The position numbers and the translations under genes are program-made. A stretch of DNA of 64,000 nucleotides, from assembly GCF_964204645.1 (NCBI RefSeq), contig NC_134030.1, forward strand, positions 14,446,110-14,510,109, read 5' to 3'. The notes below the pieces were generated by a model that saw nothing but the letters and a program-made list of their open reading frames with translations, ran no database searches and was not told the origin of the DNA. This document shows, piece by piece, positions 1-64,000 of the stretch. How positions within the stretch are numbered: the stretch's first letter is position 1; each line of letters begins with the position of its first letter. Source of the stretch: Tubulanus polymorphus. Its lineage: Eukaryota; Animalia; Nemertea.

Positions 1-26
1 TCCATAAGAAATATCTAATTACAGAT

Positions 27-239
27 ATGGTTACAGTTACTAATAATTATGGAGATAAATTAGTTATACACTTAGAATATGAAGGATTAAAAGGAAATAC
101 ATATAAATTCAGAACATATTTACCGGATAGATTTCATAGATTATCAAGTGAAGACTTAGAAGAATTATGTTCTGGAGATTTCTATTTCGTATACAAAGGT
201 AAGAATGAAAATGGGCACCATGAAATAGATTTCGAATAA
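27..239 (+). CDS. Polinton hypothetical protein (may extend upstream)
   Basis: ORF with the same orientation and composition as neighbouring Polinton genes; no motif recognised. Confidence 0.45.
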   Translation: MVTVTNNYGDKLVIHLEYEGLKGNTYKFRTYLPDRFHRLSSEDLEELCSGDFYFVYKGKNENGHHEIDFE

Positions 240-256
240 GAAAATATGTAAAATAA

Positions 257-1017
257 ATGGTAGAATTAAAAGAATACAGAATATTTGTTGATTCTAGAAG
301 ACTTACAGATTATAAATCACATAATTTACTAGTACAATTAGATAGAGAATTCAAGAATTGTGTAGATTTAAAATTAGTTAATATAAGTTTATGCAATTCT
401 TTTTATAATATATCGAATAAAACTGTTGAACATAGAGCCTTTTTAATTTTTGATAAAAGTAAAAATGAATGGTCCTCTATATTCTTAAAACCGGGGTTAT
501 ATAATTTAGATACATTAGTACAAGAAATTAATAGAAAAGCCTGGCACAAATTAGGTAGTAGTTCTGGGTTTGGTATTAGATTTTTAAAAAGTGAGAGTTC
601 TGATAGAATAAAGGTAAGGTTGTCTAATAGTGAAAAACATAAATTTATGGTAAAAAGCCTATAGCTAAACTGTTAGGAATTCTTCCAGATAGATCTTTTA
701 CAAATATTGACGCTACTACACCAAACTTAATACCTTACACACATTTTTATATTTATTGCAGTTTAATCGATCCTACAAAAACATTCGAAGCAACTAAAGA
801 TATAACTTGTAATTCTGGTTTACTAAACATTTTACAATTGAAGAATGTTAAAGAATTTGGAACGCAAATAAATTATAATTTAACAGAATGTGATTTCAAA
901 CCATGCATTCCTCATTTTAATAATTTTAGATTAGAAATTAGAAATCATAATGGATACTTAATTGATTTAAATAATTTCCCTGTAATTTATGAATTAGTTA
1001 TAAGATGTAGAGAGTAA
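257..1017 (+). pseudogene. Minor capsid protein (penton), frameshifted near 660
   Basis: N-terminal part IFVDSR...NSFYNIS...PGLYN continues in another frame as LAKLLG...FYIYCSLI...LEIRNHNGYLIDLNNFPVIYEL, ending at TAA 1015-1017. This is the typical Polinton penton pattern. Confidence 0.8.
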
Positions 1018-1034
1018 TTTTTTTCACTATATAA

Positions 1035-1373
1035 ATGAATATAACTGTTGGACCGAGTATATGTTTTGGGTTTGATTTTAAACATGGTAAAGAAATAAGA
1101 ATTAAACTAAATGATGTAATTACTGATATAAAAAGTAAATCATTTAACAATGCACCAATGATTGATAAAGAAAATTATAATATAGAAAAAGTAATTGATT
1201 TAATTAAAACGCCTTTAGAATATTATGAATTAAATGAAGATGGAATTATTGATGATATTAAAAACATATTAACGAAAATATATGATAATCATGAAAGTAG
1301 TAATGAAATAAATGTTGAATTAATCATAAATAAGTTAACTAAATATTTTGATGATAGTAATTTTTTTGAGTGA
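1035..1373 (+). CDS. Polinton hypothetical protein
   Basis: Starts at the recurrent ATAAATG motif; no recognisable domain. Confidence 0.55.
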   Translation: MNITVGPSICFGFDFKHGKEIRIKLNDVITDIKSKSFNNAPMIDKENYNIEKVIDLIKTPLEYYELNEDGIIDDIKNILTKIYDNHESSNEINVELIINKLTKYFDDSNFFE

Positions 1374-1587
1374 TAATAAGTGGATAATAACTGGATTATA
1401 TAATGGAGCATTACTATCAGTTGGAACTGTTGGTTATTCAATGGTATTAAAAAAAGTATTCAAAATGGGAAGTGTTAATGTTGATAGATTTGATATAAAT
1501 GATATTTTAAAATTAACATTAGCAGTTACTTTATCTAATTTAACTATTGATTATTTGGAAAAACAAAAATATATTCCTCCCATATAA
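1348..1587 (+). CDS. Small hydrophobic Polinton protein (start uncertain)
   Basis: Two hydrophobic/amphipathic helices (GLYNGALLSVGTVGYSMV; DILKLTLAVTLSNLTIDYL), similar to small proteins in invertebrate Polinton structural modules. Confidence 0.55.
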   Translation: MMIVIFLSDNKWIITGLYNGALLSVGTVGYSMVLKKVFKMGSVNVDRFDINDILKLTLAVTLSNLTIDYLEKQKYIPPI

Positions 1588-1611
1588 ATGCGTAATTATT
1601 TTACTAAATAA

Positions 1612-2034
1612 ATGGCTTCTGCAGTTATAACTATAATAGAATCGGCAATTGTTAACGCTTTGGCATTTACTGGTGGTGGATATTTATTTAAACATATTGA
1701 TGAAAATAGTTCATTAGGAGAACAAAGAAGACATAACTTAGCATTAGAGAAATACAATAAAGCTGCAGAAGAATATAGTGAAAAGAGGCAAAACTATATG
1801 GATTATATTAACAAGGAATTATATGATCAGAAGATTTCACATAGAGATTTTCAATTAGTTGATGATGCAATGAGTTTATATAACGCGGTAACCAATAAAG
1901 AAAAATTACATCTATACAAACCTAAATTATCAGATTATTATACCCCAAGTAAAGAACAACAGAAATATGAAATAATTTGGATTTTAGGTGGAACAGTTAT
2001 TGTTATATTTGTAGCACATAAATTTACTAATTAG
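1612..2034 (+). CDS. Polinton membrane-associated protein (N-terminal amphipathic helix, coiled coil, C-terminal TM)
   Basis: ATAAATG start; AIVNALAFTGGGYLF N-terminus; C-terminal IIWILGGTVIVIFVA. Confidence 0.65.
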   Translation: MASAVITIIESAIVNALAFTGGGYLFKHIDENSSLGEQRRHNLALEKYNKAAEEYSEKRQNYMDYINKELYDQKISHRDFQLVDDAMSLYNAVTNKEKLHLYKPKLSDYYTPSKEQQKYEIIWILGGTVIVIFVAHKFTN

Positions 2035-2053
2035 TAATTTTTTTTCTAAATAA

Positions 2054-2422
2054 ATGGAAGATAAAGTTGATAGTATTGATATCATTCCTCATGATATAAA
2101 TAAAACTAAATTAAAAATATATTTAGGAAAACAAATATTAGAATTTGAAAGTGACTTAAAAGTTAAAAAGAAAAAATATTTAAAATCTAAAATTATATAT
2201 TATCTTATTATCAGTGGTTCAGTTACAATTAGTTCTGTAACATTTTTAGCAATATTCAGTCCATTAACACCTTTAGCTATATCAATTGGCGTATTAGGAT
2301 TAAGTTCAAGTGTTTTAACTGGTATAAGTTCAAAATTAAATATAAAAAGTAATAAAGAAAAAATTAAAACTAATTTAAAAGAAATTAATAAATTAAAGAA
2401 CACACTAGATTATATGGTCTAG
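2054..2422 (+). CDS. Polinton two-TM protein (probably truncated by a premature stop)
   Basis: ATAAATG start; hydrophobic hairpin followed by a basic coiled coil. Confidence 0.55.
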   Translation: MEDKVDSIDIIPHDINKTKLKIYLGKQILEFESDLKVKKKKYLKSKIIYYLIISGSVTISSVTFLAIFSPLTPLAISIGVLGLSSSVLTGISSKLNIKSNKEKIKTNLKEINKLKNTLDYMV

Positions 2423-2502
2423 TTTAAATGGACATATAACAGTTGAAGAACAAGATAAATTATTAAAAGAATTAATGAATTATTAATTTTTTAATTATAT
2501 AA

Positions 2503-3914
2503 ATGGTAGATAGTTTTCCAAAAGCTTTCCAATATAATAAATCAATTAAATATAATATTCCAGCAATAGATTTTGATAAAGATATTACATATAGAAATGA
2601 AGTTTTAGATTCATTAACTAATTTAGAAATTTATGTTACTGAAACTAATAATTTCAATTCAAGATGGAAAATATATTTCATGTATATTTAATTAAATTTA
2701 TAAAATTGAAAGATGAAAAACAATGGTTATTAAAATCTAATATGAAGTATTGGCAGAACCAATTAAATTTTGCTGTTTATTGTGCAACAACAGGTTGTGG
2801 AATTAGTTGGAATGATCATTTGAATAATTCTAAATATAAATTAATTCAAAGTTTATTTAGATTTCATAAATACTTTCAAATAAGAATAATATTAAATGAA
2901 TTAGAGTGCGCTTTACCAGGATCTAGGTATTTTAAAGAATTAGATAATAATATTAATTTATCAAAGTTTTATAAAATTTGTAATGAATTTAATATAGATA
3001 TAAATAATTCTGATTTTAGAACAAAAATTGGAACAATAAGATCACTTCCTTGCCCTAAAAAGATTGCAGAATATTGTGCACTTCCCATACCATCTAATTA
3101 TATCTTTTATATTATTTATTACATCTTTTATAATAGCTATAATAATAAATTAGGTAATGGTAAAATAGAAACTAAGGATTTAGAAACATTAATTTTCAAT
3201 AAATTACCGAAATTTTATGATAATTTAAAACAAGAAAACAATAATGGTTGGGTTTATTTCATTTTAGAAAATAATGAAGGTTTTACAAAATCAGGTATAC
3301 AAAGAATAAATCAATCTATTAGAACTTATTTGATATGTATTCTAGGTGCACAAGTTGAAACAAGATCACCGATAATTTGAAATTTGAATACATCATTCGA
3401 TACACAAAAACAATTTAAAGTTTTATTTGAAGATTCCAAACATAATGATAAAAATAGATCGATTCCAGAAAACATTGTAAGATATCAAAATTATTTAGAT
3501 AAATCACATATTCGATTAAATTATTGTATAGGCCCTAATCTATTAATTATTTCTAATGATTTAGTATTAAAGATGGGAAATATAATTGGTTATAATAATC
3601 TAATTAAAACTGCAACAATAAATAATTCATTTGGGTTAAATGATATAAATAAAAAGATTATTACTGCTCCAAAATTAATGGAAGGTGAAAACAATAAAAA
3701 ACATATTCAATCAACAGAAACTAAAACTATGAATATTAAATTGAATAATGATTCTAAAATAAAAGATTACAATACATCAGAAAATATAAAAACTGATATT
3801 ATTCAACATGATATAATTAAACTAAATGATGATAATAAATCCCATGAAAATGCTAAATTAGCTTTAACTTGTATAGGAATTGTAATCGGAGGAATATTAT
3901 ATTTTAAATTTTAA
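2503..3914 (+). pseudogene. Polinton conserved uncharacterised protein, broken into three ORFs
   Basis: ATAAATG at 2503; frameshift near 2670; in-frame TGA at 3378-3380. Contains YWQNQLNFAVYCATTGCGIS and RINQSIRTYLICILGAQ blocks and a C-terminal TM. Confidence 0.6.
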
Positions 3915-3930
3915 TTTTTTTATTATGTAA

Positions 3931-5395
3931 ATGGATGTAGGTGGAGAAGATATTGGAATGGATAATTTTGATGAACCTGGCATAACTGATGAACAACAAC
4001 CTGAATTTAGTGAAAGAAGTTTTAATGATGGTAATGAGCCAGAATATAATAATAATTAAAATATGCCTGATTATATTAAAAATGCAGAATCACAATTAAA
4101 TCCTGAAAATTTAGACCCAGATTTAGTAAAACAAGATTTAGATAATTTAAACAAAATACCTAAATTAGAAGATTTAATTGAAAAATCTGAACTTAACATA
4201 AATGATGAAGACGTTGGACTTTTAGCAGATCAATTAAAATTTTTAGATAATGGTAAATGTTATTATCGTTGAAAGGTGATTATTATATTGATATCACTTC
4301 TAAAAATAATAAAAAAATATTAGCGGAATCAACTTTGAAAAGTTTAAAACCAGATAAAATTAAAATAATAAGTAATAGTAATGAAATAACTGATGTTACA
4401 CAAAAAGAAATAGATGATAATATAGACGTATTTAAACAAAGAATTAATGAATTATTTGAAATAATCAAAAAGAAATCAGAAACAGAAACAACTTCTGAAC
4501 AGAATATAACTTCCAAAAATAGTAAACTTAAATCAAATAAAGTTCCAATTGAAAAACTTTTACCGAATGGATTACTTGATGCAACAGATCAAGAATTAGA
4601 AGATTTAGATATATTTTCTGATAAAGCAATTAGAGAAATTATTAGAATAAGACTTGCATCTGATAAAATTGCGCATGATAAAAGTATAAGAGATTTTAAA
4701 ATTAGAACTTTGGAAAAAGACAGAACTGATAAAATTAAAGAAATAGAACAATTAAAATTAGATAGAGATAATAAAGTTATTGAAGAAATTGAATTTAAAA
4801 AAAGAAATGCATATTTAGAAAAAGAAATTGATGATTTAGAATATAACATAGAATTACAAAAAGAAGAAATTAAATTATTATTAAAATCATATGATTATAA
4901 TATTAATAGATTAAAAGTTATTTTTAAAGATTTGTTAATAAAACCAAATTCTGACATATCATTGAAAGATAGAATAAAATTATTATTTAAATTAGAAGGA
5001 ATAACAATTCTTTCAATTCTAACAGCTTACTTACAGTACTTACAGTTACTATGTTATTTACAACAATTGGTTTAGCAATATCAAATGCTTTAAAATCTAC
5101 TCCTACTCCAAATAAACCAGATAAACCCCCAGGTAATAATTCTATACAAGATAAAGTTAAAGATGGTTTAAAGAAATTAGCAAAATATTTATGGGAACTA
5201 TCTAAAAAATCTGCTGCAGCTTTACCAGGAATTATTGCATCAATTGTTGGTTTTATATTGAAATCTGCTGGGAATATTCTTAACTATGCTGCTGAACATA
5301 TTATTTTATTTTTAATTACAGTTGTAAGTGCAATTATTTTTCGGTTAGTGAATATGATATCAAAAAGATATCAAGAAAAAAATAATAAAAAATAA
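3931..5395 (+). pseudogene. Polinton coiled-coil/membrane protein upstream of MCP, disrupted
   Basis: TAAATG at 3931; fragments 4063-4272, 4257-5075 and 5051-5395 overlap at frameshifts; hydrophobic C-terminus. Confidence 0.55.
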
Positions 5396-5419
5396 ATAAT
5401 TAATTTTTTTGTTAAATAA

Positions 5420-6671
5420 ATGAGTGGGAGTTATTTCAATCCTTCTAAGATTTCTAGAATATCTAATGCTATTAAAGCAGAAAGATCACATCATATAATT
5501 ACACATAATCCTTCTAATATTAATCCTGATGAAACTTTATATGTTAGAATTCCTAGATTAACACAAAATACTTTTTATGTTCCAAATAGTATTTATTTAT
5601 CAGCTGATATAAAAGTAACTGGCCATGATAACAATTATGTTGTTGATAATGTTGGAAGGTATTTGATTAAAAAGTTAACTATAAAGATTGGTCCAGAAAC
5701 AGTTTTCTCATTAGATGATTATAATTTATTTATGCATTATAAAGATTTATGGTTAACTAAAGAAAATAGAAATAATATGATATTTCAGGGTATTCAATCG
5801 GAAAACCATAATAAATTAAGATCTGAAGCCAATAATGCAGTAGTAACTAATGCTGTAGATAATTTGATTAAAAAGATTTATGGATGCAAATATAAAATTC
5901 CATTAGACTTTGAATTGATAAATAATAATGCACCTTTATATAAATATGTAATTCAAGAAGATATTATATTTGAGATAACATTTGCTCCTTCCTGTAAATG
6001 AAATTGTATTATCTAGCGTTGTTAAAGATATGGGTTATAAATTATCGAATATATGTTTAGAATATGACACAGTAACTAATGAAAATATTGCTAGCACAAT
6101 TCAAACTCAATACAATCAAGGATTTTCATTATTATATGATTATATTGATAAATTTAAAACTGTAACTATTAATGTAAATGATGAAATTATTAATGAGAAT
6201 ATTAACTTCCCAAGAAGATCTATTAAAGGTATATTAATATTTTTTACCATTGCAACATATTCTAATGGTGCAATACAGGTTGATAAGTATTATAATCCTG
6301 AAATAACAAAAGTAGAAATAACTATCGAAGGAATAGCAAATAAAATATTTTGTCAAGGAATGAGAATGATAGATCAATGGCCAGAAATTAGAAAACATTT
6401 TATGAATGAAAAAGTAAAATCATTTGAAAATTGTAATATTAATCAAATTGATTATTATACCGGTAATAAATATGCATTATGGTTAGATTTTAGAACAACA
6501 GAGGATAATTCATTACATGGTTCTGGGAAAAAATTACAAAACACTGAAGATGGAATACAATTATTCATGACAAAGAAAAAAGGAAGTCTAAATTTTAAAA
6601 TGCACATTTATATTATATCTGACGCGCAATTAAATATTGTAAATTCTCAATTAAATAGTGTTATGTATTAG
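5420..6671 (+). pseudogene. Major capsid protein (double jelly-roll), single frameshift near 5990
   Basis: About 416 aa when joined. Motifs HNPSNINPDETLYVRIP, YKIPLDFE, YKLSNICLEYD, INFPRRSIKGIL, YNPEITKVEITIEG, LWLDFRT..DNSLHGSG and ISDAQLNI match invertebrate Polinton MCPs. Confidence 0.85.
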
Positions 6672-6703
6672 AATTTTAACTTTAATAAATATTTATTATA
6701 TAA

Positions 6704-7829
6704 ATGGAAGGTGGAATATATGAAATACAAACTCCAAGTGAAATGATATCAGATATATATTATATATTACCTTATGATGAATACATTAAGTATTTTGGAG
6801 ATTACTTTAATCAATTCAAATATAGAATAAGTAAAATAAAAGATAATATTGAAACTAAAATAGAAAATTATATTGAAACTAAAATAGAAGATAAGAATGA
6901 TATTGAATATAAAATAGAAGATAATATTGAAACTAAAATAGAAGATGTAACAGCATCTACATCTTATAATATACCCTCTACATATGATATTGAATCAAAA
7001 AAAGATTATTATAATCCAAAATATTGTGTGTAAGAAATATATATCATATAAAAATTGGGCATCACATAAGAAATCAAAGAAACATATAGAAAAAGAAAAG
7101 AATAATAATGATAATAATATATCAGTTAGTAATATAAAAGATAATGTTAACCCAATTGAAACTAATGATACCATAGATAATATAACAGATAATGTAATAG
7201 ATAATGTTAACCCAATTGAAACTAATGATAATGATATAACAGATAATGAAATAATTGATGATTCTAAAAAACATTGTAACATTTGTAATTTAGATATTTC
7301 TAAAAGTAATTTTTCTAAACATAAAAAATCTAAGGGGCACATAGAAAATGAAAAAGAATTAATATGTGATTATTGTAATAAAGAAAATGAACCTGTTGAT
7401 AAAATTACTCATTATAAATCAAAATTACATCTAATTAATGTTTATAAAAGAGTGGGTATGTTACCATTGTTAGATGAACCAAAGAAATATATCAAATATT
7501 TTAATCCTGAAACTAAACAATATCATATATTCTTTAAGTTGTTATTTGATAAATTATTAGCTTATGCAGAAGATAATCCTGACCAAATATATACATTAGC
7601 GTATAATGGACACCTAGATTTATTTAATTTATTAAATGATTTTGAATTTGATTTTGATGGTGATAATTCTAATGATTACTTTGAAAAATTAAGAATAAAA
7701 GCTGGATTAAGTGATGATGAACGTAGAATGAAGGATGAAATAGAATTAATAAATATGCCAAAGACTTCTGATGAATTTGATATAAACAAAGATGATTTTA
7801 TAAATGTATTAGAAACAAAATTAGAATAA
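6704..7829 (+). pseudogene. Multi zinc-finger protein (CxxC...HxKSKxH repeats), frameshifted near 7010
   Basis: Three CxxC-x9/10-H(K/Y)KSKxH units; internal tandem repeats (KIEDNIET; DNVNPIETND). Confidence 0.6.
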
Positions 7830-7862
7830 TTATTATAAAACTATTTATATATATGTAAAAAT

Positions 7863-8125
7863 ATTTATATATCTATGCACTAGACGTATGAGTAAGAAAG
7901 TAAGAACCCAAGAATCCTTGCCAAGAAATATAAATCATAAACATAAATTATAAACATAAATTATAAACATAAATTATAAACATAGTTTTAATATATAATT
8001 TATTCATTATTATATATTTCATTTAATAATTCATATTTCTACCGAATCCAAGATTCTTGCCAAGAAAGTAAAAAGGTAAGAATCTTACTTTCTTACTCGT
8101 ACGTTTAGTACATAGATATATAAAT
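7863..8125. repeat. 43-bp inverted repeat enclosing short direct and tandem repeats, between convergent genes
   Basis: 7863-7905 matches the reverse complement of 8083-8125 with 3 mismatches; about three copies of TAAACATAAATTA lie inside. Confidence 0.8.
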
Positions 8126-8156
8126 TAGTTTCTATAATATTCCAAATTATAAATAG

Positions 8157-8768
8157 TTATTTTATAAATTTATATTCATAGGGAAATTGAAGTCTCAGTA
8201 ATAATTTTGAAACTTTATTATTCTTTAATTTATTCATATATTCATCATGTAATTCAGTAGGTATAATTTGATTTTCTTCCAATGATTGTTGCATAGATTT
8301 TCTATCTTTGTTATAAAATAAAACTAGAAATCTTATATTCTCCCTAAAGTCTTTAACAATTGAATGATATTTTTGATTTAAAACCCATGTTGTTATCCCC
8401 AAATGTCTGCCAGAAAAAGCTAAATAGCATAACTCACTTTCTCTCACTTTTGAATCATGTAAATTAGCGCAATCATCTACAATGAATAATGTATTTGATC
8501 CTTTATAAGTATCAATTGCTATTTTTATACAATTATCTAAATTTTCTTTTACTGTTTTAGGATCTAATATAATAAACTTTTTTATCTTAACTATATCTCT
8601 ATTATATGTTTTATTCATTTCATAAGTAGGACAAAATAATATTATATTATCAAAATGATTCTTATAAATAGTTTCTAACAAATCTAATATGAAATGTGTT
8701 TTACCACAGTTTGTTACACCAGTAACTAACATATTTTGCGGTTCAAATATAAATAAATCTTTATTCAT
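8157..8768 (-). CDS. A32/FtsK-like DNA packaging ATPase
   Basis: Walker A GVTNCGKT, Walker B FIVDD, the GRH motif and downstream Q. ORF intact. Confidence 0.92.
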   Translation of the reverse strand: MNKDLFIFEPQNMLVTGVTNCGKTHFILDLLETIYKNHFDNIILFCPTYEMNKTYNRDIVKIKKFIILDPKTVKENLDNCIKIAIDTYKGSNTLFIVDDCANLHDSKVRESELCYLAFSGRHLGITTWVLNQKYHSIVKDFRENIRFLVLFYNKDRKSMQQSLEENQIIPTELHDEYMNKLKNNKVSKLLLRLQFPYEYKFIK

Positions 8769-9818
8769 TTATTCTTTTAATTTTACTAGATAAAATCCAT
8801 TCATTAAATTTATCTTCATATCCTTTATATTTCACCAAAGAATACTTTTTTCCTTTAAGAGTTTTTGTTTTCAATACTTTTTCTATTTTGTATTCTATTT
8901 CATCTGGGTTTGGTACAAGTGATAATTCTTGTTCATAGAAATAACCTAATATTTCTTCATCTTTTAGATCTTCTAATTTATAAACAAATGGTTTAGTTAA
9001 TATTATCTTTTTGATTTTAAATATTTCTTCAGTAAAATTTGGAGGAGTATAACCCTTATAAAATGTTTTTCTATATTTAGATATTCTAACATGTTGTCCA
9101 ATTTTAAATCTAGGTTCACCGAAATCAAATGCTCCGTATAAATTATTCCAAACTATTTCTGAATTATCTTCTTTTCTAGCTTGTATAGGTTTCATATTTA
9201 TAGAACTATGTTTAGAATTATTATAACCTTTCACTAAATCATCTAATATATTTATAGACTCATCGATATATTTATATGTTTCATTAGCAGTAAAATATTT
9301 CTACATTCTAGTTTTCAATGTTTTATTAAATCTTTCTATAATAGATGCTTTTTTATCTGAATGTGTTGAAAAATAATCTACATCGTTATCAGATAATAGT
9401 TTTTTGAAATGTTTGTTATGAAATTCCTTACCTTCATCAAATTGTATCTTATCTGGAATAGCTTCTTTAAATATAGATTTAAAAGCATTTGTCACTTCTA
9501 TTCCAGTTTTATTTTTGAGTATAACATTCAGTGTCCAGAAATATCCTTTGTTGTATTCTTCTAAGTTCTTCATGTCAATTAAATCTGCTTGCCATTGTTG
9601 ATCGATATATGAAACCATAACTTTTCTTGTTAAATAAGTTTTATCCATTTTCTTGTGGATTTGATAAGTTGGTTGATTTTGTAACCATGATTTTAATTCA
9701 CTATATTTTATACCACCATAATCAGATTTAATTTTATTCCATAATTCTGAAACGTTAGAATATGATACTTCACTTTCTGGGTTATAATATAAATCTCTTA
9801 AATATTGTTCTTTTTCAT
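8761..9818 (-). pseudogene. Polinton retroviral-like integrase with C-terminal chromodomain
   Basis: ATG at 9818; QWQADLIDM, IQFDEGKEF, KASIIERFNKTLK; C-terminal YKIEKVLK...LVKYKGY..KFNEWI. Frameshift near 9650 and stop at 9301. Confidence 0.9.
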
Positions 9819-9824
9819 CTTATT

Positions 9825-10196
9825 TTAATCCATTAATAATAATTTGGATTTAGTTTCAATGACTTTATGATTTGACTTATTTTCTAGTATGATAGGTTTA
9901 TTATCATTGGAATCATTATTGTTATAATCAGATTTATACTTATATTTATATATTACACCAGATAATATAATAATTGTGATTAACCCAATTGTAATATATA
10001 AGTAATTATTTCTTCCACTATTAGAAGAATTAGATGGATTATTATTTGAATTAATATCAGATAAAGTCTGTGATTCATTTATATCAGTTAATTTCTTTTT
10101 CTTAGCTTTTTTTAATTCTGAAGATCTTTTACCTAATTCTCTTGCCCATTTAATTTGTTTCTCGGATCTAGCCTTTTTCTTAACTCCATCACTCAT
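9825..10196 (-). CDS. Polinton basic protein with one TM helix
   Basis: ATAAATG start; RSEKQIKWARELG motif; TM YLYITIGLITIIILSGVIY. Confidence 0.6.
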   Translation of the reverse strand: MSDGVKKKARSEKQIKWARELGKRSSELKKAKKKKLTDINESQTLSDINSNNNPSNSSNSGRNNYLYITIGLITIIILSGVIYKYKYKSDYNNNDSNDNKPIILENKSNHKVIETKSKLLLMD

Positions 10197-10578
10197 TTAT
10201 TTTAGTTAATTTTTGTTCTGATTCATTTTCTGTTTCGACGTTTGGTTGTAGTACATCTGTTTCGTCATTACGTGATTTATATTCCATAGGCTTGATGTTC
10301 GAAAATGTTATGACGCCAGTAGAAATTAATGTCATAACCGATCCGGGTTTCATAGCATCTAATTCTTGAAAAGTAATTATTTTTCCCAAGAAATCCTTAG
10401 ATTTCCCGCCAGCAATTAATAATTCAAGATGATGCTTACAATATAAATAGTATTCATAATCTATATTACAATTAACTTGAGCACAATTAGTTACAACTGT
10501 ATCTTTATTATCACTTATACCCAAATCATCTAATGTCTTTTCAATATCAATACTATTCTTATTAGATTTCTTTGACAT
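10189..10578 (-). CDS. Polinton hypothetical protein
   Basis: ATAAATG start; its stop overlaps the next gene start. Confidence 0.55.
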   Translation of the reverse strand: MSKKSNKNSIDIEKTLDDLGISDNKDTVVTNCAQVNCNIDYEYYLYCKHHLELLIAGGKSKDFLGKIITFQELDAMKPGSVMTLISTGVITFSNIKPMEYKSRNDETDVLQPNVETENESEQKLTKINE

Positions 10579-10991
10579 TTATATAGGATAAAAATAGCAA
10601 GAAAAATATAATAAGTATTCTTCAAATGATACTAGTATCTCTTTGGCGTTAATACTAAATTGACTAGGTCAGTTAAAGTTAAAGAATTTCTATTCAAATC
10701 TATTCAAAATCTATTCAATCTAATGTCAATTAGAATTACCAAAAGAAAATATTAAAAATATAATAGAATTCACTCGCTAGTTGAAGTTATTGTTTTTTTA
10801 TTATATTTTATTTAAATTAGGATTTAGATTATCTCACTACTATTGTTTATCTATAGGAGCAGTAACTATAACTGTCCAAATAAGCCATTTCGGATTCTCG
10901 ATAATAAATCCTAAAACTGAAAATAAATTCAAAGAAACGACTGGTGGAAATATTATTTCATAAACACATATATTTATTATGTAAATTTTAG

Positions 10992-11332
10992 CGATCGATA
11001 ATAGAACAATGGAGAACAATAGAAATGCGGTCCAATCGGACCGGTTATTGCGCAATACACAGTTATATTTTTATTCTGTAAACTACAACATTCAAACATA
11101 GAACTGTAACCAATCAGTATTGAGCAGCTGTTTCAGTCAACAACGATCAATAATAGAACAATGGAGAACAATAGAAATGCGGTCCAATCGGACCGGTTAT
11201 TGCGCAATACACAGTTAACAGTAAACAATCAATACAGAACAACCGCCGCCATTAACAACGATCAATAATAGAACAATGGAGAACAATAGAAAAGCGGTTC
11301 AATCGGACCGGTTATTGCGCAATACTTAGTTA
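10992..11332. repeat. Three 74-bp direct repeats containing palindromes
   Basis: Copies at 10992-11065, 11144-11217 and 11259-11332. Each contains CGGTCC-AATC-GGACCG (one substitution in copy 3) and TATTGCGCAATA. Confidence 0.9.
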
Positions 11333-11414
11333 ACAGTAAACAATACAATATTAAAACAGATATATACAATCGAGATTACATTTTTTGATATCTATATTAC
11401 ACAGACCTTCAGTA

Positions 11415-11881
11415 TTATAATTTTATCCAGAATTCTTTAATTACTGGATTGTTTCCAATCATTTCTTCAATTTCTGGTAAATATCTGACTACTTCACTAA
11501 ATGCTAATCCTAATATTTTGAATTTTTCATATTTTATTTATCTACCTACTCTTCTCAGTTTTCTTTCAAAACCAGCACTGATATCTCCACTCATTTTCTT
11601 AGTTTTCGATTCTTTGAGTCCCAACAGCAATTTAAGTCGCGTTGCTGGTAATTTTGGTAATTTTAGTTCGCGCGGTAATTGTTTATTATGTATTACATCA
11701 CTCAGAATTTTCACCATTTCTTGATGATAGTCCAAATGTTCTTGTAATTTTGTGAAGTTTGTTCGTCAATTACGAGAGTTTTATCCTCCATTTCTATTGA
11801 TTCCTGTGTTTCACTATCTATCGTTTCTGGTTCCTCATCCGTTGGTTGACTTGGAATTTCTGGTTCATCTTTGTGTTCCAT
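11415..11881 (-). pseudogene. Polinton hypothetical gene, disrupted
   Basis: MEHKDEPEIPSQP... from 11881; shifts frame into ORF 11538-11735 and reads past a stop to ...KEFWIKL. Confidence 0.45.
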
Positions 11882-12219
11882 TTTAATCTAAAAGATGTCG
11901 TGAAAATGAATTACTGTACTTAAATATGTTTAAAGGTTTCCCTACTTCATAATATATGTACTTACACTTAGATTTAGAACTGTAAACTGTGTTTTGAGAG
12001 AGAATATCCAATACGTACTATGTATGTGAAAGTTGATTTCTAACTGCCGACGTGGCGCACGTTCGACCAAACTAATTACTTCTGCACAGATGTTCTTTAT
12101 GATGAAGTTAATTATTTCTTTAGAATTGAAAACAAGATATATTTGGCAACATATGTTTTAGTAGTAAGCAAAAGCTATGTATTATAGACATACAAAGCTC
12201 AAATAGAATTGCCAGCTTT

Positions 12220-12888
12220 CTAACCACTGGTCAAAACCTCAGAATGCGGTTGATTCTGTGAAATACTATTCCATAATTCAACAAATGTCTTTGCTTTATC
12301 CAGTTGATCTAAATATAACTGTAAATCTAGTTTATTAGATTTGATTATGTTTTCCTTCTTTTCTAAAGGCCTTAAATTTTTCCAATTCCAAATAAGTTTT
12401 TTATTGTATTCATCATTCATGTCAAATTTAGAAATCGGCAACACGTGATCAATATGAAAGTATTCACCATAATTATCTATATTCATTTTATCATCGAATT
12501 GATGTATTATCCATGATTTGAGAAATTCATCTGAACAACCCAATAAATTAGATAGTGTTTCTGAATGTGTTTCTTTGTTGAATAATTGTGTTAATCTAGA
12601 TCTTAAGCATTGTTTTAATCTAAAATTAAGATCTGTTTGATATCTTTCTCTCATATATTCTGTCATATAATCATTATAAGCATCTCTATTATCTTCTCGA
12701 TATTGTTTGGTATATAGTTTAAAACAAGTTTTACAACAATATTAGAAACCATCTTTGCTAATCTTACGCTTACTAAATTCTGTTAAAGCTAATTTATCTA
12801 ATTCACATTTAGAACACTTCTTGTAGTATATATTTATAACACCAGTGTTATTTGTAATATTGATAGTTTGTGGTTGTTCTTGTTCCAT
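12220..12888 (-). pseudogene. HNH endonuclease with N-terminal zinc finger (giant-virus/phage type), one internal stop
   Basis: ATAAATG at 12888; CSKC...KDGF*YCCKTC, then LRSRL...LLGCS...FHIDHVLPIS...NWKNLRPL...EN..K. In-frame TAA at 12742-12744. Confidence 0.8.
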
Positions 12889-13149
12889 TTATTATACATA
12901 TTTTTTTACTAAATTGATTTTAGAAGTTCAATGATTTATATCATGTATTATTTCAATCACACTTTACTAACACTTTTAATGTTTAAAAATCTAACTCACA
13001 CAAATATGAATATTGAAATAATGTTGTAAATATATACTTTTATATCTATTCTATAAGAGCTCACACTTTACTCACACTTTTATATTGAATAATCTATCAA
13101 TTTATATGTTATTCATATATATTTTATTCATGTATATAAATATTTTAAG

Positions 13150-13417
13150 AGTAATAGGGATAATAGGCTTTCAAGCTAAAGGTTGAACGGGCGGGTGAGT
13201 AAAAAATGAAAAACATAAAAAATAATAACAATTTCTACTTGAATTAGGAGTGAAACTCATAAAAATGAAAAATAAATTTGAGCGTGTGAGAATTTATTTT
13301 TCATTTTTATGAGTTTCGCGAGTAATTCAAGTAGAAATTGTTATTATTTTTATGTTTTTCATTTTTACGAGCTCGACCGTTCGACCTTTGGCTTGAAAGC
13401 CTATTATCCCTATTACT
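13150..13417. repeat. Right terminus of Polinton 1: 268-bp imperfect palindrome (hairpin TIR)
   Basis: Begins AGTAATAGGGATAATAGGCTTTCAAGC and ends GCTTGAAAGCCTATTATCCCTATTACT; arms pair up to a ~12-nt loop near 13279-13290. Confidence 0.93.
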
Positions 13418-27063: not shown

Positions 27064-27382
27064 AACGCAGTCTCAAATGTTTTGTTACTTTCTCAAAATG
27101 TATCAAAAATTTAACTAATTTTTAGTTCATAAGTCCTCAAATATTCATTAATGAACAGTTAAAAATTGTTGAAACATGTCGACTCTGCCGTAAAATCAAG
27201 CTATTAACGACCCCGTTTGTGGGATAATGTCGGGCTTTAGAGAACATAATGCCCCCGAGGTCTTCACATTTACAGATAAGATTACGTAAGCGTTTTGCGC
27301 GCAACACGCGGTAGGCACACAATAGAAATCTGAGCCGCGCGTTCTTTGATCATCACCTATTAAGAGGACCGCTATTGTGAAA

Positions 27383-27558
27383 ATTGACTGCGGGAGGAAT
27401 ATTCCTCCCGAAGTCAATCGATGGAAACTTGACCAAGGGGTCCGATATTCAAACAATTGACTTTGGGAGGAATATTCCTCCCAAGGTCAAGCGAAGAGAA
27501 TTTGACCTTCAGGTCTTATATTTAGAATATTGACTTTGGGAGGAATATTCCTCCAAAT
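27383..27558. repeat. Three palindromic units at 73-bp spacing (probable transposon subterminal repeats)
   Basis: TTGACT(T/G)(T/C)GGGAGGAATATTCCTCCC(A/G)A(A/G)GTCAA at 27383 and 27456, with a truncated third copy at 27529. Confidence 0.85.
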
Positions 27559-56253: not shown

Positions 56254-56760
56254 TTTTTAGGGTTTTCTGACTTTCGTCGAAAACCCTCTTGAAATTCTGT
56301 TGATTATTATTATTATTTATTTTCCGCCGATTTCGTCAAATAAAATTCATCTTCATTCAGATTCGGCAACTGACAGCTTCGAAACGAGATGTATAAATTG
56401 ATACTGTAATAACGGTCTCTCTGAACCAACAGATTGTCTGTACTTTCCATCCTATTTGAAACTTAAAAATACTTATTAGGTTACTGTAAATAAAGAATTG
56501 AATTGAATTGTTAGACAACAAGCACCGGCGAAATAACAGTTTGTGACGTCATTTAGTAAGTAAATAAAGGAGGGCTCCGAGAATTTCCAAATCACGGGGA
56601 CTATACTGGGGTTAGACCATTCAACCAAAAAGAGGATTGCTCCGATAAAATCCAAATCATCTCATTTTATTTTTTTCCATCGAATACCCGGTAATTAATT
56701 TTTCCTTTCGATCACATGCATCCAGAAAACCCGTTATCGCTGCTTTGCAGCTATATTTTT
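56254..56760 (+). mobile_element. Non-autonomous Helentron-type (HINE/DINE-like) element
   Basis: T-rich ends; 5' hairpin AGGGTTTTCTGAC...GAAAACCCT; short (ATT)n; 3' subterminal IR CAGAAAACCC followed by stem-loop GCTGC-TTT-GCAGC. Confidence 0.7.
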
Positions 56761-58487: not shown

Positions 58488-60487
58488 ATGGAAGCAAATA
58501 AATACTACTGCCCAACATGTAATATCGATATAGACAAGTCTCAAAAAGCAAGACACAATAAAACTATAACACATTTAGAGAATAAATTGAAACTAGAATA
58601 TAAGGATGATATATTAGAAACTAAATTAGAAGAATTAAAGAATGAAAAAGAAACATACAAACATACAAATGTGATACACGTAATCAATCATTCAGTGATA
58701 AAAGATATTATAAAGAACATTTAAAATCTATAAGTCATATTAGAAATAAGAATAATGATATTTTAGGTGAAGATTATTTTGATAATGATAACGATAAGAA
58801 ACAGAAGACAATTAAAAGAATAAAAAATAAATTAAACAATAAAAGACCATATATGGAAGATGTAAGAAATTATATTAATTCATTAGATAATAAAAAAGAT
58901 ATAGAGATAACCGAAGCATTTAAAAGTGATATTGGTCCAGCAGCTATTGAGTTTAAATTTCATAAAGGTAAAACATTAGAAGAAAATAAAAAACATTTAG
59001 AAAATATGAAAGAAATAATAAAAATAATTACAGATGTTGAATATCCTAAAATTAGTATATCTTCTAAAGTAAAGTTTATAAAATCTGAAGATAAACCAAT
59101 ATATAATATAAATTCTCATTCACAACATATTATATCTAAACAACATATAGATGATAAATTAAATAAATGTTATAATGAAATAAAAACTAAAATAGAAGAG
59201 AAATATTTTGAAGGATCTGGTTTAATATTTGATGAAATAATATTTATAACTTTACATGTTTATAACACAAAATATAATAAGTTAACTAAATCAAAACCAA
59301 TAGATGAAAATAATTTATCATATTATAAAGATGATAGTATAAATGGAACAAGTTATATTAAACTACCATTTAAAACTAATGGTGTAATAAATGTACAAAA
59401 TGAAGATGATAAATGTTTTCTATGGGCTATAATAAGTTGTTTACACCCAGTTGAAGATTATAATAAACATACTTATAGATTAACTCATTATAAACAATTT
59501 GAAAATAATTATAAGATAGATAAGTATCCTGTTAGAATTAAAAATATTCCAAAAATAGAAAGAGATAATAATTTAAAGATAAATGTATTTGATTTAATTA
59601 AATAACCAAACAGAGAACTGAAGCAAAAACTGATTTTGAAAAAGATTTTTTTAAGTTAATGAACAATGCGTTCTATGGTAAGACTTGTGAAAATATTAGA
59701 AATCGAAATGATATTGAGTTAGTTAGTAATGGTAAAAGGATAAGGCATTTACAATCATATCCTAAGTTTAGGTAACAGAATATTTGATGAAAATTTAGCA
59801 GCAGTTAAAATGAGAAGAACTTCAATGAAGTTCAATAAACCTATTTATGTTGGCGCTTCAGTTTTAGAATTATCAAAATTACTAATGTATGAATTCTATT
59901 ATAATATATTACAACCTCATTTTGGAGAAAAACATATAGAAATACTATATTTTGATACTGACAGTTACATATTAAAGATAAAAACTGATAACATAACAGA
60001 TGATTTAAAAATATTAAAACACCATTTTGATTTCAGTAACTATCCAAAAAATCATGAATTGTTTAGCAATGATAATAAAAAAGTTCCTGGGAAGTTTAAA
60101 GATGAATTAGGTGGTGAAGAAATGATAGAGTTCATTGGTATTAGATCTAAAATGTATAGTTATAAAACTAAAGAACATGAAGCTAAAAAGTTAAAAGGAA
60201 TTACCAAAAGCGTTGTTGAAAAGAATATTCATTTCAAAGATTACATCAATTGTATATTTAATGAAGAAGTTAGAAAACATAAAATGAAATGTTTAAGATC
60301 TGAAGATCATGAAATGTTTATTGAAGAAATTGAAAAGATAAGTCTAAACCCATTTGATGATAAAAGATATATTTTAGATGATGGAATCCACACAGTCGCC
60401 TATGGTTGCAATTTAGATGAATATATAAAATTCAAAAGAGAAGAAACAAAAGAAAATGAAATTATGAAAAGAATTCTAACGTGTTAA
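58488..60487 (+). pseudogene. Protein-primed family B DNA polymerase with N-terminal zinc fingers and a large internal deletion
   Basis: EGSGLIF, SYIKLP, INVQNEDDKCFLWAI, then a direct jump to FEKDFFKLMNNAFYGKT, KPIYVG..VLELSK, YFDTDS, GKFKDE, KLKGI and PFDDKR. The exonuclease and motif A regions are absent near 59605. Confidence 0.9.
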
Positions 60488-60735
60488 TAAATTTCAATAA
60501 AAATTTGTATAATAAATGGAGAGTAAACAAGTACACAGTGAATTCTTAGATAGAATTAAAGATACCACAAATGTAAAACCTGTAGATTATAAATTCAAAA
60601 AGTTAACAGAATTAACAATTCACAAGAAATATTTAATTACCAATAAGGGAAAAAAAATATTTTAAAGCGTAAGGTTTCAGCGAACTCTAACTCTTTTTGA
60701 ATTTTAACCTATTTTAATAAAAATTTGATATATAA

Positions 60736-63012
60736 ATGTGCACAAGATTAATTAAAGTTCCCGCGAAAGACATGAGTAATAAATATATAAATTCAATATT
60801 ATATTATTTAACTGTTAACAATAATTTAGCAGATATTTCAGGAGTAAATATAAATGAGTATTATAAATCTGAAAATAATGAATTAATTGAAACATCAGAT
60901 ATATTTTGCGATAATATAATGCTATATAAAATCATGTTAGAAAAAGAAATTATAAAAGAAAATAGAACAACTTTTCTAAACATTAATCAGAGAAAGATAA
61001 CACATTATGAAATTAAAGAATGTTTTAATCAAGGAGATATTATATTGGATAACTTAACTATAAAAATTACACGTGTTTTAACAATTCATGATGATAATTC
61101 AAAATCATATATATTAAGTAGAATTAATCAAGAATTAAAATTAACAGATTATATTGCTGTATTTAAAATTTCATTATGCAATCAAAATTTAAATGAATTG
61201 ATACAGAAAATGGATAATATTGAAAAATTATTAAATGAAAAAAATTACAATATATTAGATGTAGATGTGACACAAGATTTTAAAGGATCATTTAATTCAG
61301 ATGAAATAAAATCAATGTTCGAAAATAGAAAATATAAAATTCTAAAAGAATTTTCCAATAGTTGTGTTTCAGCATTACATAAGGATGATAAAATAAAGAT
61401 CTATAATAAAACAGCATGTCAATTCAAATCTCCTGGTGTAAATATAAATTTCGGTTCAAATTTAATGAGTTACATAAATTGCTATCAAGAGAGGTTAAAA
61501 GAATCATTTGAAAAATCAATTGAAACAGGATTGATTAGAATTGAAATAACAAGTATTTCATTTAAAAGAGGATTAAAAGTGATGGGAAAAATAAAACAAT
61601 ACTTAAAAAAAGAAAATATTTACTATTCACCTACATATTTACAACTTAAATCATTATTTGATGAGGTTCAACAGACCGTATGTATTTATGATTTGATTGA
61701 AAAATGCTTTTATTTCTGTTATTATGGTGATTTATTAGCAAGGAAATTTATAGGATATAAATCTAGGATAAGTAAAAATATTGAAGAGTCCTCCTTTTTA
61801 CTTATTTTATCAATGTTTACAATTAAGAATATCCCATGTTTATACCTAACAATTAATCAAAATGATGATAAATCAGAATTCATTATTGAAGCAAAAAAAT
61901 ATATTAAAACTGAAGGAGCAACTGTTATATCTTCAACTAATTCAATGTTTACAGTATTGAATAAATTTATATTTAGATTTAAATTACGTGAAACAGGAAT
62001 TAGTTTTACAACTTTAAAAAAGAGATACAATATAAAATCTAAACCTTTTTATAAATTAGATGCACTTGATATTGAAGAAGATTTTGATTTAAAATTATTA
62101 TCTAAAAGTGAATTTAAAAAGTTAGAAGAAATGAAAGAACTTAAACAATTACAAGAAGATATAGATGAAAATAGAAATAAAATTTGTAATGAATTAAAGC
62201 AACAATTAGATATTGATAATGAATTATTTGAGACAGAATTTAAAAAACTTGAAATAATTCCTGAAGTAAAATTAAATGATTATACTCCTAAAATATCTGG
62301 AATTGACAATAATACAATTTTTGAAATTAGAGGTTTTTCAACTCAATGTAAATGTATAACAGATCTTTATTTCAGTTATATTTTAACAGATCAAGGCTTT
62401 TATGAAACTACTACTAATTTAAGAGAATTATTGATAAAAACATTACAATTAGACGTATTAAATAATAATTATTTTGAATTGTCTTCGATCGAAAAAATCA
62501 TCGAAAAGTTAAAAATAGGCGTTCATAGCCCTGATAGACACTTTATTTTATCAAAATTAGAAAAACCTATTTTCCAAGTAAAGAAGATAACACACGATCA
62601 TTTTGAAATAATTGATAAAATGGATTTTGAATTGATGAAAAAATATACTGAATATTTAAAGATAAATTCTAATGATTTCATAAATGTATGTGATATACGT
62701 AAAGAATCTGATTATTTAAGAAAAATGAAACTTAACAATATGAAAATTAAGCAATGCGAGCGTTTAGAACTATTAAAAGATAATTCTGAATATAATATTG
62801 ATTTCATTAATCCTAGATATTTTAGAAATAAATTGCGCCATCTAATTTTAATTCATAATGATGAAAATATTTACATATCAAATGAATTTTTCGATAAAGA
62901 AATGATCAAGAATAATATAACAGAATATCAGGTGATAAAATTGATTACGCACAAGCAAAAATATAATTCTCAGCGGCATAAAGAATTAGTAGTAAGTTTA
63001 ATTGTTATTTGA
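60736..63012 (+). CDS. 758-aa protein; putative Rep_trans/phage gpII-like rolling-circle initiator domain
   Basis: Intact ORF with ATAAATG start (existence is secure). Function is inferred only from the ordered motifs DVDVTQDF, KIKIYNK and LIRIEIT. Confidence 0.55.
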   Translation: MCTRLIKVPAKDMSNKYINSILYYLTVNNNLADISGVNINEYYKSENNELIETSDIFCDNIMLYKIMLEKEIIKENRTTFLNINQRKITHYEIKECFNQGDIILDNLTIKITRVLTIHDDNSKSYILSRINQELKLTDYIAVFKISLCNQNLNELIQKMDNIEKLLNEKNYNILDVDVTQDFKGSFNSDEIKSMFENRKYKILKEFSNSCVSALHKDDKIKIYNKTACQFKSPGVNINFGSNLMSYINCYQERLKESFEKSIETGLIRIEITSISFKRGLKVMGKIKQYLKKENIYYSPTYLQLKSLFDEVQQTVCIYDLIEKCFYFCYYGDLLARKFIGYKSRISKNIEESSFLLILSMFTIKNIPCLYLTINQNDDKSEFIIEAKKYIKTEGATVISSTNSMFTVLNKFIFRFKLRETGISFTTLKKRYNIKSKPFYKLDALDIEEDFDLKLLSKSEFKKLEEMKELKQLQEDIDENRNKICNELKQQLDIDNELFETEFKKLEIIPEVKLNDYTPKISGIDNNTIFEIRGFSTQCKCITDLYFSYILTDQGFYETTTNLRELLIKTLQLDVLNNNYFELSSIEKIIEKLKIGVHSPDRHFILSKLEKPIFQVKKITHDHFEIIDKMDFELMKKYTEYLKINSNDFINVCDIRKESDYLRKMKLNNMKIKQCERLELLKDNSEYNIDFINPRYFRNKLRHLILIHNDENIYISNEFFDKEMIKNNITEYQVIKLITHKQKYNSQRHKELVVSLIVI

Positions 63013-63069
63013 ATTGAAACATATAAATATTTAACATTTTATAAACTGTTTAATTTTTCTCTTAAATAA

Positions 63070-63267
63070 ATGGATGGTTTCATCCCAACTGGGAAAAGTG
63101 ATTTGAAACATTATCTTGTAGCAGGAGGATTAATATTGGCTGCGCTTTATTTATACTATGAGAATATTAGTAAGGATTTGATGAATGAAAATATAAAATT
63201 GAGCAAGAAATTGAAAAAATTAAATGGAAATAAAAATAATCATAAAAAAGTTATTGAATCAGATTAG
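63070..63267 (+). CDS. Small Polinton membrane protein
   Basis: ATAAATG start; one TM (YLVAGGLILAALYLYY). Confidence 0.55.
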   Translation: MDGFIPTGKSDLKHYLVAGGLILAALYLYYENISKDLMNENIKLSKKLKKLNGNKNNHKKVIESD

Positions 63268-63287
63268 TGAATTAATTAAATAAATAA

Positions 63288-63590
63288 ATGAGTGAAAATA
63301 TATTAAACTTATTACATCTAATATATAAAAATCAACAGAATATTAAATCAATTATTATGCTTACAGGTTTATTTTCATTCTCAGTTTATACTATAAAACA
63401 GTTGTTAGAATTCTATGATTGCTGTAAAATTAGATACACTGAATTAATAGAAAATATGAATTATATTTCAGATAGATTGAATAATATTAAGTGTTGTGAA
63501 ATTTGTAATAAAAGATATAAAAATAAAAAGAGTTTGAGAAATCATAAATATATTCATGAATTAGATGAAAAATTATATGAATCAAAATAA
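63288..63590 (+). CDS. Small protein with TM and C2H2 zinc finger
   Basis: ATAAATG start; CEICNKRYKNKKSLRNHKYIH. Confidence 0.7.
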   Translation: MSENILNLLHLIYKNQQNIKSIIMLTGLFSFSVYTIKQLLEFYDCCKIRYTELIENMNYISDRLNNIKCCEICNKRYKNKKSLRNHKYIHELDEKLYESK

Positions 63591-63670: not shown

Positions 63671-63743
63671 TATTAGATACCCTATTAGATACCCTAATAC
63701 CATGTATTAGATACCCTATTAGATACCCTAATACCATGTATTA
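63671..63743. repeat. Short tandem repeat (34-bp unit x2, built from TATTAGATACCC)
   Basis: Directly visible. Confidence 0.85.
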
Positions 63744-64000
63744 AATACGTATTAATGGTATTGAATACATATTATGCTTTATTTCTGAAAATGAAGTAAC
63801 AGAAGTAATTTATGTTTTAATTCATTCGAGTATGATATTATAAATTCTTTACACTTGACTAGGATAATACAAGAGTGATATTAGTTAGTTGGCTTATTCA
63901 GTAAGAGAAACAATGAAATAATACTAGAGTGATACTAACAGTTAAAGTTATTGAATTTCTTGTTAAATATATTTGAATTCTAGTCAATTCTTGTTAACCA

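Follow-up and report, generated by a model that had tools for sequence, protein, structure and literature searches.

In the accessible parts of two 2026 papers, nicking initiators with a TBP-like fold are placed in bacteria (Rep_trans) and in archaea (Rep-Arvir), and eukaryotic ones are not mentioned there (PMC13107129, PMC13595969). For the bacterial protein RepD, the available part of PMC4797284 gives an active site of D46, D142, D146, Y191, K193, R212 and E214, together with R189, and the DNA nicked is a stem-loop. Rep-Arvir (DUF7845, PF25227) is described in the accessible text of PMC13107129 as a TBP-fold initiator of archaeal viruses and plasmids, and the same text assigns to the HUH enzymes an RRM-like fold and a His-x-His motif. 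We analysed a stretch of 64,000 nucleotides (nt) from the nemertean Tubulanus polymorphus (contig NC_134030.1, positions 14,446,110 to 14,510,109; hereafter the window), in which a gene of 758 codons lies within a decayed Polinton, here called element B. Our preferred explanation, to which a probability of about 0.6 was assigned, is that this gene encodes a tyrosine nickase that depends on a metal and adopts a TBP-like fold, likely from a eukaryotic branch of Rep_trans/Rep-Arvir, and that it is carried by a minority of hairpin-ended Polintons in a module that truncates a small core gene. Searches of the literature, covered mostly through open-access articles, supplements aside, turned up no description of Rep_trans-like families in eukaryotes or in Polintons; the available main text of bioRxiv 10.64898/2026.10.13.758929 contains none of the terms Rep_trans, rolling or TBP, and its supplements could list such genes.

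The protein family and its predicted active site

The open reading frame (ORF) is intact within DNA of 22% GC, and the probability of such an open frame arising by chance at the local base composition was about 5e-37. A preliminary description of the locus, made from the sequence alone, had reported an intact ORF of 758 amino acids (aa) with three motifs in an otherwise decayed element; all three motifs were recovered (Table 1) and the neighbouring polymerase was indeed found in several pieces. A fourth motif, FCDNI, was missing from that description and adds a third predicted metal ligand, D59. Tyr223, the predicted nucleophile, is placed 46 aa C-terminal of D177, and D175 occupies the position of RepD R140.

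Word-index searches yielded seven relatives of the protein, and a metagenome scan gave 15 loci from 204 candidates with 22-29% identity. When a 23-row family profile was searched against 1.84 billion representatives (50% clustering), 991 proteins were obtained at E <=0.001, 616 at 1e-10 and 285 at 1e-30. Conservation was examined in a 135-row alignment comprising the window protein, six earlier relatives and 128 of 147 newly listed matches (19 short fragments were left out), and since the rows are best-scoring matches the following figures are upper bounds. Asp was present at D59 in 127/127 rows, at D177 in 133/135 and at D181 in 135/135; K221 was kept in 134/135, Y223 in 135/135 and K225 in 134/135, and G265, R268 and E270 in 135/135, 133/134 and 132/134, respectively. 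All seven key sites were kept in 121 of the 126 rows that cover them. The conservation that the preliminary description had proposed to check was thus borne out, with D177, D181, Y223, K225, R268 and E270 each kept in at least 98% of rows. No conserved His was found among alignment columns at >=70%. In a FastTree phylogeny of 145 rows the window protein fell in a clade of six with a support of 1.0.

Searches of Pfam, PHROGs, NCBIfam and PDB sequences gave no name to the window protein or its homologues, the best lead being PHROG 702 (E 0.052), and aa 451-758 of the window protein had no match in Pfam. Among 61 scanned homologues no Pfam family exceeded the cut-off save one chromodomain (member P0047, aa 45-85, E 1e-5), a domain carried by many chromatin-targeting mobile elements. 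Dicty_REP, the Rep of Dictyostelium nuclear plasmids, had no Pfam match in these 61 homologues or in the window protein. Judged by these sequence searches, the gene is a member of a large family without a Pfam model.

The structure model, built from the region before aa 451, was confident (pLDDT 95) and has a two-lobed TBP-like sheet; an earlier fold (aa 87-445, 8 sequences, pLDDT 69), now superseded, lacked the D59 strand and contained only half of the sheet. In fold searches the model matched RepDE and inovirus G2P, and the comparison with RepD and gpII folds that had been proposed for this locus therefore supported the TBP-like sheet and the two matches, though with modest scores. The structural alignment with RepDE runs from model residue 51 on RepDE 39 to model residue 293 on RepDE 237. 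At its end both proteins show the same 23-residue offset, in line with R268 and E270 as counterparts of R212 and E214, and the end points also fit the conserved D59, D177 and E270, in an alignment that gives no residue pairs or distances. We are highly confident of the predicted fold and active site.

Table 1. Positions of the nickase gene, its motifs and associated features (window coordinates unless residues or a metagenome contig are named)
Feature	Position	Strand	Basis or detail
Predicted TBP-fold tyrosine nickase, 758 aa	60736..63012	+	ORF, 135-row conservation, structure model
Nickase protein layout: core; second alpha/beta domain; charged linker and C-terminal third	~aa 45-300; ~aa 310-445; thereafter		
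FCDNI with D59, predicted counterpart of RepD metal ligand D46	60904..60918	+	family alignment, rows covering the site
DVDVTQDF with D177 and D181, predicted counterparts of RepD D142 and D146	61258..61281	+	alignment and hhalign
KIKIYNK with predicted nucleophile Y223; K221 and K225 like RepD R189 and K193	61390..61410 (Tyr 61402-61404)	+	alignment
GLIRIEIT with R268 and E270, predicted counterparts of RepD R212 and E214	61528..61551	+	alignment
Element B left terminus, 267-nt imperfect palindrome starting AGTAAT	58137..58403		fold and sequence comparison
Decayed region of a B-family polymerase in several frames, beginning zinc-finger-like	58488..60487	+	motifs only
5' part of small Polinton gene, cut short by the module	60517..60645	+	3' part seen in element A, window 3-239
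Module left edge and A/T-rich leader ending TAAATG, like leaders of the element's other genes	60646..60735	+	loose read ends at 60640 and 60645
Pair of small ORFs following the nickase gene: 65 aa; 100 aa with weak C2H2 zinc finger	63070..63590	+	read depth above that of the nickase gene
Short tandem repeat, 34-nt unit, 2.3 copies	63671..63748		
Stretch resembling window 10650-10719 (element A right arm)	63919..63988		74% over 70 nt; 80% over 50 nt, E 3e-4
Sister Polinton element A	1..13417		capsid-like gene split in two, A32 ATPase, chromodomain-bearing integrase, terminal palindrome 13150-13417
Fold-back regions of homologous metagenome loci	L005 1-9506; L006 4686-4782; L007 1-288 and 5579-5661		

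The TBP-like sheet is common to the window protein and Rep_trans (pT181-family RepC/RepD, RepSTK1 and MOB-T relaxases), and the conserved residues follow the order and type of D46, D142, D146, R/K189, Y191, K193, R212 and E214. In both, DFKGxF comes after the acidic strand, and hhalign placed DVDVTQDF on RLDxAxDDF of the RepSTK1 family; the Gln corresponding to RepSTK1 Q184, at Tyr+5, is found in 97/135 family rows, with Cys in the window copy. In contrast, R140 and A144 of Rep_trans are replaced by Asp (112/135 rows) and Thr (121/135), whereas R124 and A128 were invariant in a Rep_trans control alignment of 102 rows; this Asp is the one that the preliminary description had flagged as a caveat. 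The family further differs in a Tyr-to-Glu spacing of 47 residues, compared with 17-23 in Rep_trans, in its protein length of 500-1200 aa with long C-terminal parts, and in that it was not found in the prokaryote genomes searched. The Rep_trans model PF02486 gave no match in the window protein (P0001) at E 10, in six aligned members, or in 61 further homologues at E 0.01, whereas all RepSTK1 relatives used as a control carry it. Because R140 is Asp and PF02486 has no match, the protein is not considered Rep_trans proper; its sequence and model make it likely that it belongs, as a tyrosine nickase, to the Rep_trans/Rep-Arvir superfamily. The original proposal of a Rep_trans/gpII-type nickase is supported by the TBP-like fold and by the Asp/Tyr/Lys/Arg/Glu set conserved in 135 homologues, though not as to membership of Rep_trans itself.

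The family profile against 103 Rep_trans/gpII proteins gave a best domain E of 0.012, and a control comparison between Rep_trans and gpII profiles was likewise low-scoring, with a probability of 0.35%, the gpII alignment consisting of five close sequences. The RepSTK1 structure (which we take to be 4cij) was absent among the matches listed in every fold search. For inovirus gpII/G2P, the best named BFVD match was A0A8S5VFN8 (E 6.6e-5, prob 0.99), and the PHROG 702 'replication protein' match mentioned above covered the acidic strand in 1/7 relatives; on the other hand, the TM-score with the window model was 0.20-0.24 and a profile comparison with five IKe-like gpII sequences was non-significant and out of register. 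Parvovirus Rep/NS1 resolves hairpin ends by tyrosine nicking, and the role suggested here, tyrosine nicking for transposition or hairpin-end resolution, is like that of HUH nickases (Helitrons, Replitrons, parvovirus Rep/NS1) as far as the accessible descriptions go, but the window protein shows neither the RRM-like fold nor the His-x-His motif of those enzymes, and searches found it to have no helicase domain. Rep-Arvir, as described in the available text (PMC13107129), is likewise a TBP-fold protein recognised by structure only; it has three acidic residues and one essential Tyr and works with a hairpin origin. It differs in its KHYYM-type motif and wHTH domain, and PF25227 has no match here.

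Element B and carriage of the nickase gene

The left terminus of element B folds back strongly (-103 kcal/mol, z -24.9, matched by 0/200 shuffles), as the preliminary description had reported, and is 89% identical to the terminal palindrome of element A. The latter element contains an A32 ATPase (E 4.5e-12), part of an integrase that bears a chromodomain, and a weak capsid match, and given this gene set and the shared palindrome the Polinton assignment is sound. Both 267-nt palindromes carry the same arm mismatches, and read depth indicates that they belong to a large family. Polinton ends begin 5'-AG. Both termini in the window begin with AGTAAT, their flanks are unrelated to each other, and their hairpins are oriented alike (n=2 ends); no flip/flop pair was found between them, and the read tables did not separate the forms. 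With Polintons and adintoviruses the host element shares PolB motifs, an A32 ATPase, an rve integrase with chromodomain, a capsid-like gene and long terminal repeats starting AG; it differs in its non-core nickase gene, in the palindromic nature of its 267-nt termini, and in that element B is seemingly without the capsid and integrase block. The window ends before the full extent of element B, and the resemblance of 63919-63988 to the right arm of element A suggests that the block of capsid, ATPase and integrase genes is missing from it.

In the polymerase region the motifs KLMNNAFYGK (59653), KPIYVG (59837) and YFDTDS (59948) lie in separate frames and are presumably those of a B-family polymerase. 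The pieces were not named by Pfam, NCBIfam, PDB sequences or plasmid tblastn, and an IMG/VR scan for polymerase relatives gave 0/1; the label 'polymerase' is based on these motifs and on context. The nickase gene had been placed next to this polymerase, which needs correction, as the small Polinton gene lies between the two and is cut into by the nickase module. The leader at 60711-60738 is 90% like 60491-60518, and 60621-60649 matches window 3-31. Two close relatives of the nickase end in a C-terminal domain like this small gene (P0003, aa 966-1038, score 70; P0010, aa 955-1020, score 63; 0/500 shuffles). The small gene carries a Y-L-P-x-R-F motif at window 3-239, and it might have an OB fold.

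Copy numbers were compared using genomic reads from another sample carrying the same species label. A single run presumed to be RNA had no depth across the nickase gene, which carries no information on its expression. Mean read depth was 609 for the polymerase and 31 for the nickase gene, a ratio of about 0.05 (<=0.14 bin to bin). At 60640-60645, 360 reads diverge and continue into the small gene whose 3' part corresponds to window 3-239, and 75 reads cover 60650, so that about 83% of reads at 60640-60650 leave the window sequence. These junctions indicate that the module starts at about 60646, truncates the small gene and is present in at most about 1/6 of the copies. By the depth ratio, most hairpin-ended copies in the species are without the nickase gene at >=88% identity. 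Many module copies have internal deletions, as judged from read joints. No homologue of the nickase gene was found in element A within 1-13417, its left arm lying outside the window. The earlier statement that such nickases are not part of the standard Polinton gene set agrees with these data, in which the gene does not behave as a core gene present in most copies. Among the differences listed (18 of 211 rows), third codon positions accounted for 4/11 in the nickase gene and 6/7 in the polymerase (P 0.07), which hints weakly at a young copy rather than a selected one. Rather than belonging to the standard machinery of Polintons, the nickase is likely a passenger or a replacement module, and we consider its accessory status probable.

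Occurrence of the family and the rest of the window

The family was encoded by none of the candidate stretches in IMG/VR (0/2, 0/181, 0/69; 0/44 pattern matches), by 0/42 candidates in GTDB and by 0/121 among the GTDB matches listed, and tblastn with P0006 gave no match in 50,697 phage records, nor was any found in plasmids; as exact-pattern or single-query searches these are no proof of absence. One metagenome locus (L015) is a broken homologue in animal host DNA beside Ig-domain and L1-type ORFs. The family is probably eukaryotic.

The homologues were frequently alone on contigs of 2-8 kb, and L001 and L004 were flanked by tandem repeats. Among 18 neighbouring ORFs from 7/15 loci no polymerase, rve integrase, ATPase or capsid match was found in Pfam, a weak test given that Pfam misses the window polymerase too and that the loci span 1.2-9.5 kb. 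L005-L007 form one lineage (75-94% DNA identity), all with fold-back ends: perfect arms of 23 nt and 22 nt lie at contig ends (z -8.6), L007 has a 77-nt fold-back pair at the opposite end, and L005 has inverted ends of about 1,045 nt that terminate at this arm as well. A Polinton gene was seen in none of the three. They look like hairpin-ended linear plasmids or minichromosomes, and their contig ends are possibly an assembly trace of closed hairpins, although collapsed repeats can give the same picture. Fold-back ends without a Polinton gene suggest that the family itself may process hairpin ends. Such ends were not found in 9/15 loci, mostly short fragments, and L008, L010 and L013 contained weak palindromes. 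A dispersed repeat of 220-430 nt lies between the genes of L005-L007, and a small convergent ORF without a Pfam name directly follows the nickase gene in L001 (2054-2323), L004 (3273-3620), L005 (3475-3900) and L010 (2320-2622). For the proposed co-occurrence with hairpin-ended Polintons the evidence is mixed: most hairpin-ended copies lack the gene and no Polinton gene was seen at the tested metagenome loci, whereas one lineage lies on fold-back contigs and two relatives are fused to the small Polinton domain.

Elsewhere in the window, element A contains a 54-nt inverted repeat with a 177-nt spacer where its gene blocks converge (7852-8136), a 115-nt repeat in three copies (10950-11331) and, beside its right terminus, a gene in two frames without a Pfam match (12223-12888, reverse strand) whose motif HIDH...N...N we take to be HNH-like. 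Between the two Polintons, at 14000-55600, lies a nest of long terminal repeat retrotransposons with Pao/BEL pieces and gypsy elements; one element carries a baculovirus-F-like env (18088-20607), and one has a weak dUTPase match at the start of pol (51610, E 7e-4). Taken by themselves, the Pao, gypsy and F-like env elements would suggest an animal host, probably an insect. A 73-nt repeat is present three times at 27362-27554 with an internal palindrome in each, and an element with inverted ends of about 200 nt made of short tandem units is found at 44520-46887. At 56723-56759 the read depth is very high and loose ends number in the thousands on either side, which marks a short, highly repeated host element.

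Alternative explanations and implications

In the mechanism we propose, D59, D177 and E270 would hold a divalent metal, Y223 would attack one DNA strand and stay bound to its 5' end, and the freed 3'-OH would prime synthesis or be rejoined. Given that one lineage is found on fold-back-ended contigs, the family would most likely serve, as its usual job, small mobile DNA of its own, initiating the replication of this DNA or resolving its ends. Here the nickase was likely captured by a Polinton sub-family seemingly bereft of the capsid and integrase block, and ordinary Polinton copies would keep protein priming and the rve integrase. That the nickase acts at hairpins is possible, at somewhat less than even odds, and a role in Polinton replication is unlikely for most copies.

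The preliminary description had suggested a Polinton lineage in which the nickase resolves the terminal hairpins; in this reading it would act on the 267-nt palindromes of many non-carriers in trans from a few carriers. The strong and conserved imperfect palindromes, the fold-back ends of L005-L007 and the stem-loop nicked by RepD are all compatible with this idea. It is, moreover, favoured by observations that weigh against our preferred explanation, namely that the nickase gene has the codon bias, composition and leader of the element and that, from the C-terminal domain of P0003 and P0010, the clade may have been tied to Polintons for a long time. Nevertheless, we regard it as unlikely: the nickase depth is about 5% of that of the polymerase, the module truncates a core gene, both ends seen have the same orientation, integration of the full palindrome with AGTAAT at its ends looks like the work of an integrase, and no relatives were found in IMG/VR. 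Still less probable is that the protein serves as transposase to a copy-and-paste transposon in its own right, comparable to Helitrons and Replitrons but non-HUH; this transposon would have inserted into a single Polinton copy, and that Polinton copy would then have spread passively. A sharp left junction at 60645 within a gene, the solitary and tandem-repeat-flanked homologues, the broken copy in animal DNA and several deleted copies in the species would fit such an element, but the surroundings of 60646-63070 contain no terminal repeat or target duplication, a Polinton-type leader would not be expected in a foreign transposon, and to the right the interrupted gene is not continued; the sequence there is like the far right arm of element A, which replacement or deletion would explain more readily than a clean insertion.

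The lack of a sequence match to PF02486 or solved Reps also counts against a nickase and would agree with a TBP-like protein that binds DNA or acts in transcription, of the kind known from the TBP and early transcription factor domains of giant viruses, and whose nickase likeness is due to chance or vestigial. TBP chains score above RepDE in VIA, and the BFVD matches include viral proteins of the TBP-like and early-transcription-factor types. It is, however, hard to see why a non-enzyme would keep an invariant Tyr, three near-invariant Asp, a Glu and basic residues in the order and spacing of RepD, and Rep-Arvir gave the same pattern of TBP and inovirus Rep matches and proved Tyr-dependent, according to the accessible text of PMC13107129; we therefore judge this reading very improbable. 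A metal-dependent nickase carried as an accessory module remains our preferred explanation. A bolder extension of it, which we put forward tentatively and think rather doubtful, is that the family is the missing eukaryotic branch of TBP-fold rolling-circle endonucleases, running unnamed small hairpin-ended linear replicons or transposons, and that it here replaced the capsid and integrase block in a switch from protein-primed to nick-primed rolling-hairpin replication.

Exchange of modules at the ends of Polinton-like viruses is described in the accessible part of PMC11296320, and the present locus would be a case of Polintons seen swapping modules for replication. Should covalent protein-DNA links be formed by the enzyme, DNA tagging would gain a non-HUH option. 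A family that comprises about 1,000 clusters (50% identity), has no model in Pfam and keeps its predicted active site intact would extend the superfamily to a third domain of life and point to uncatalogued eukaryotic mobile DNA.
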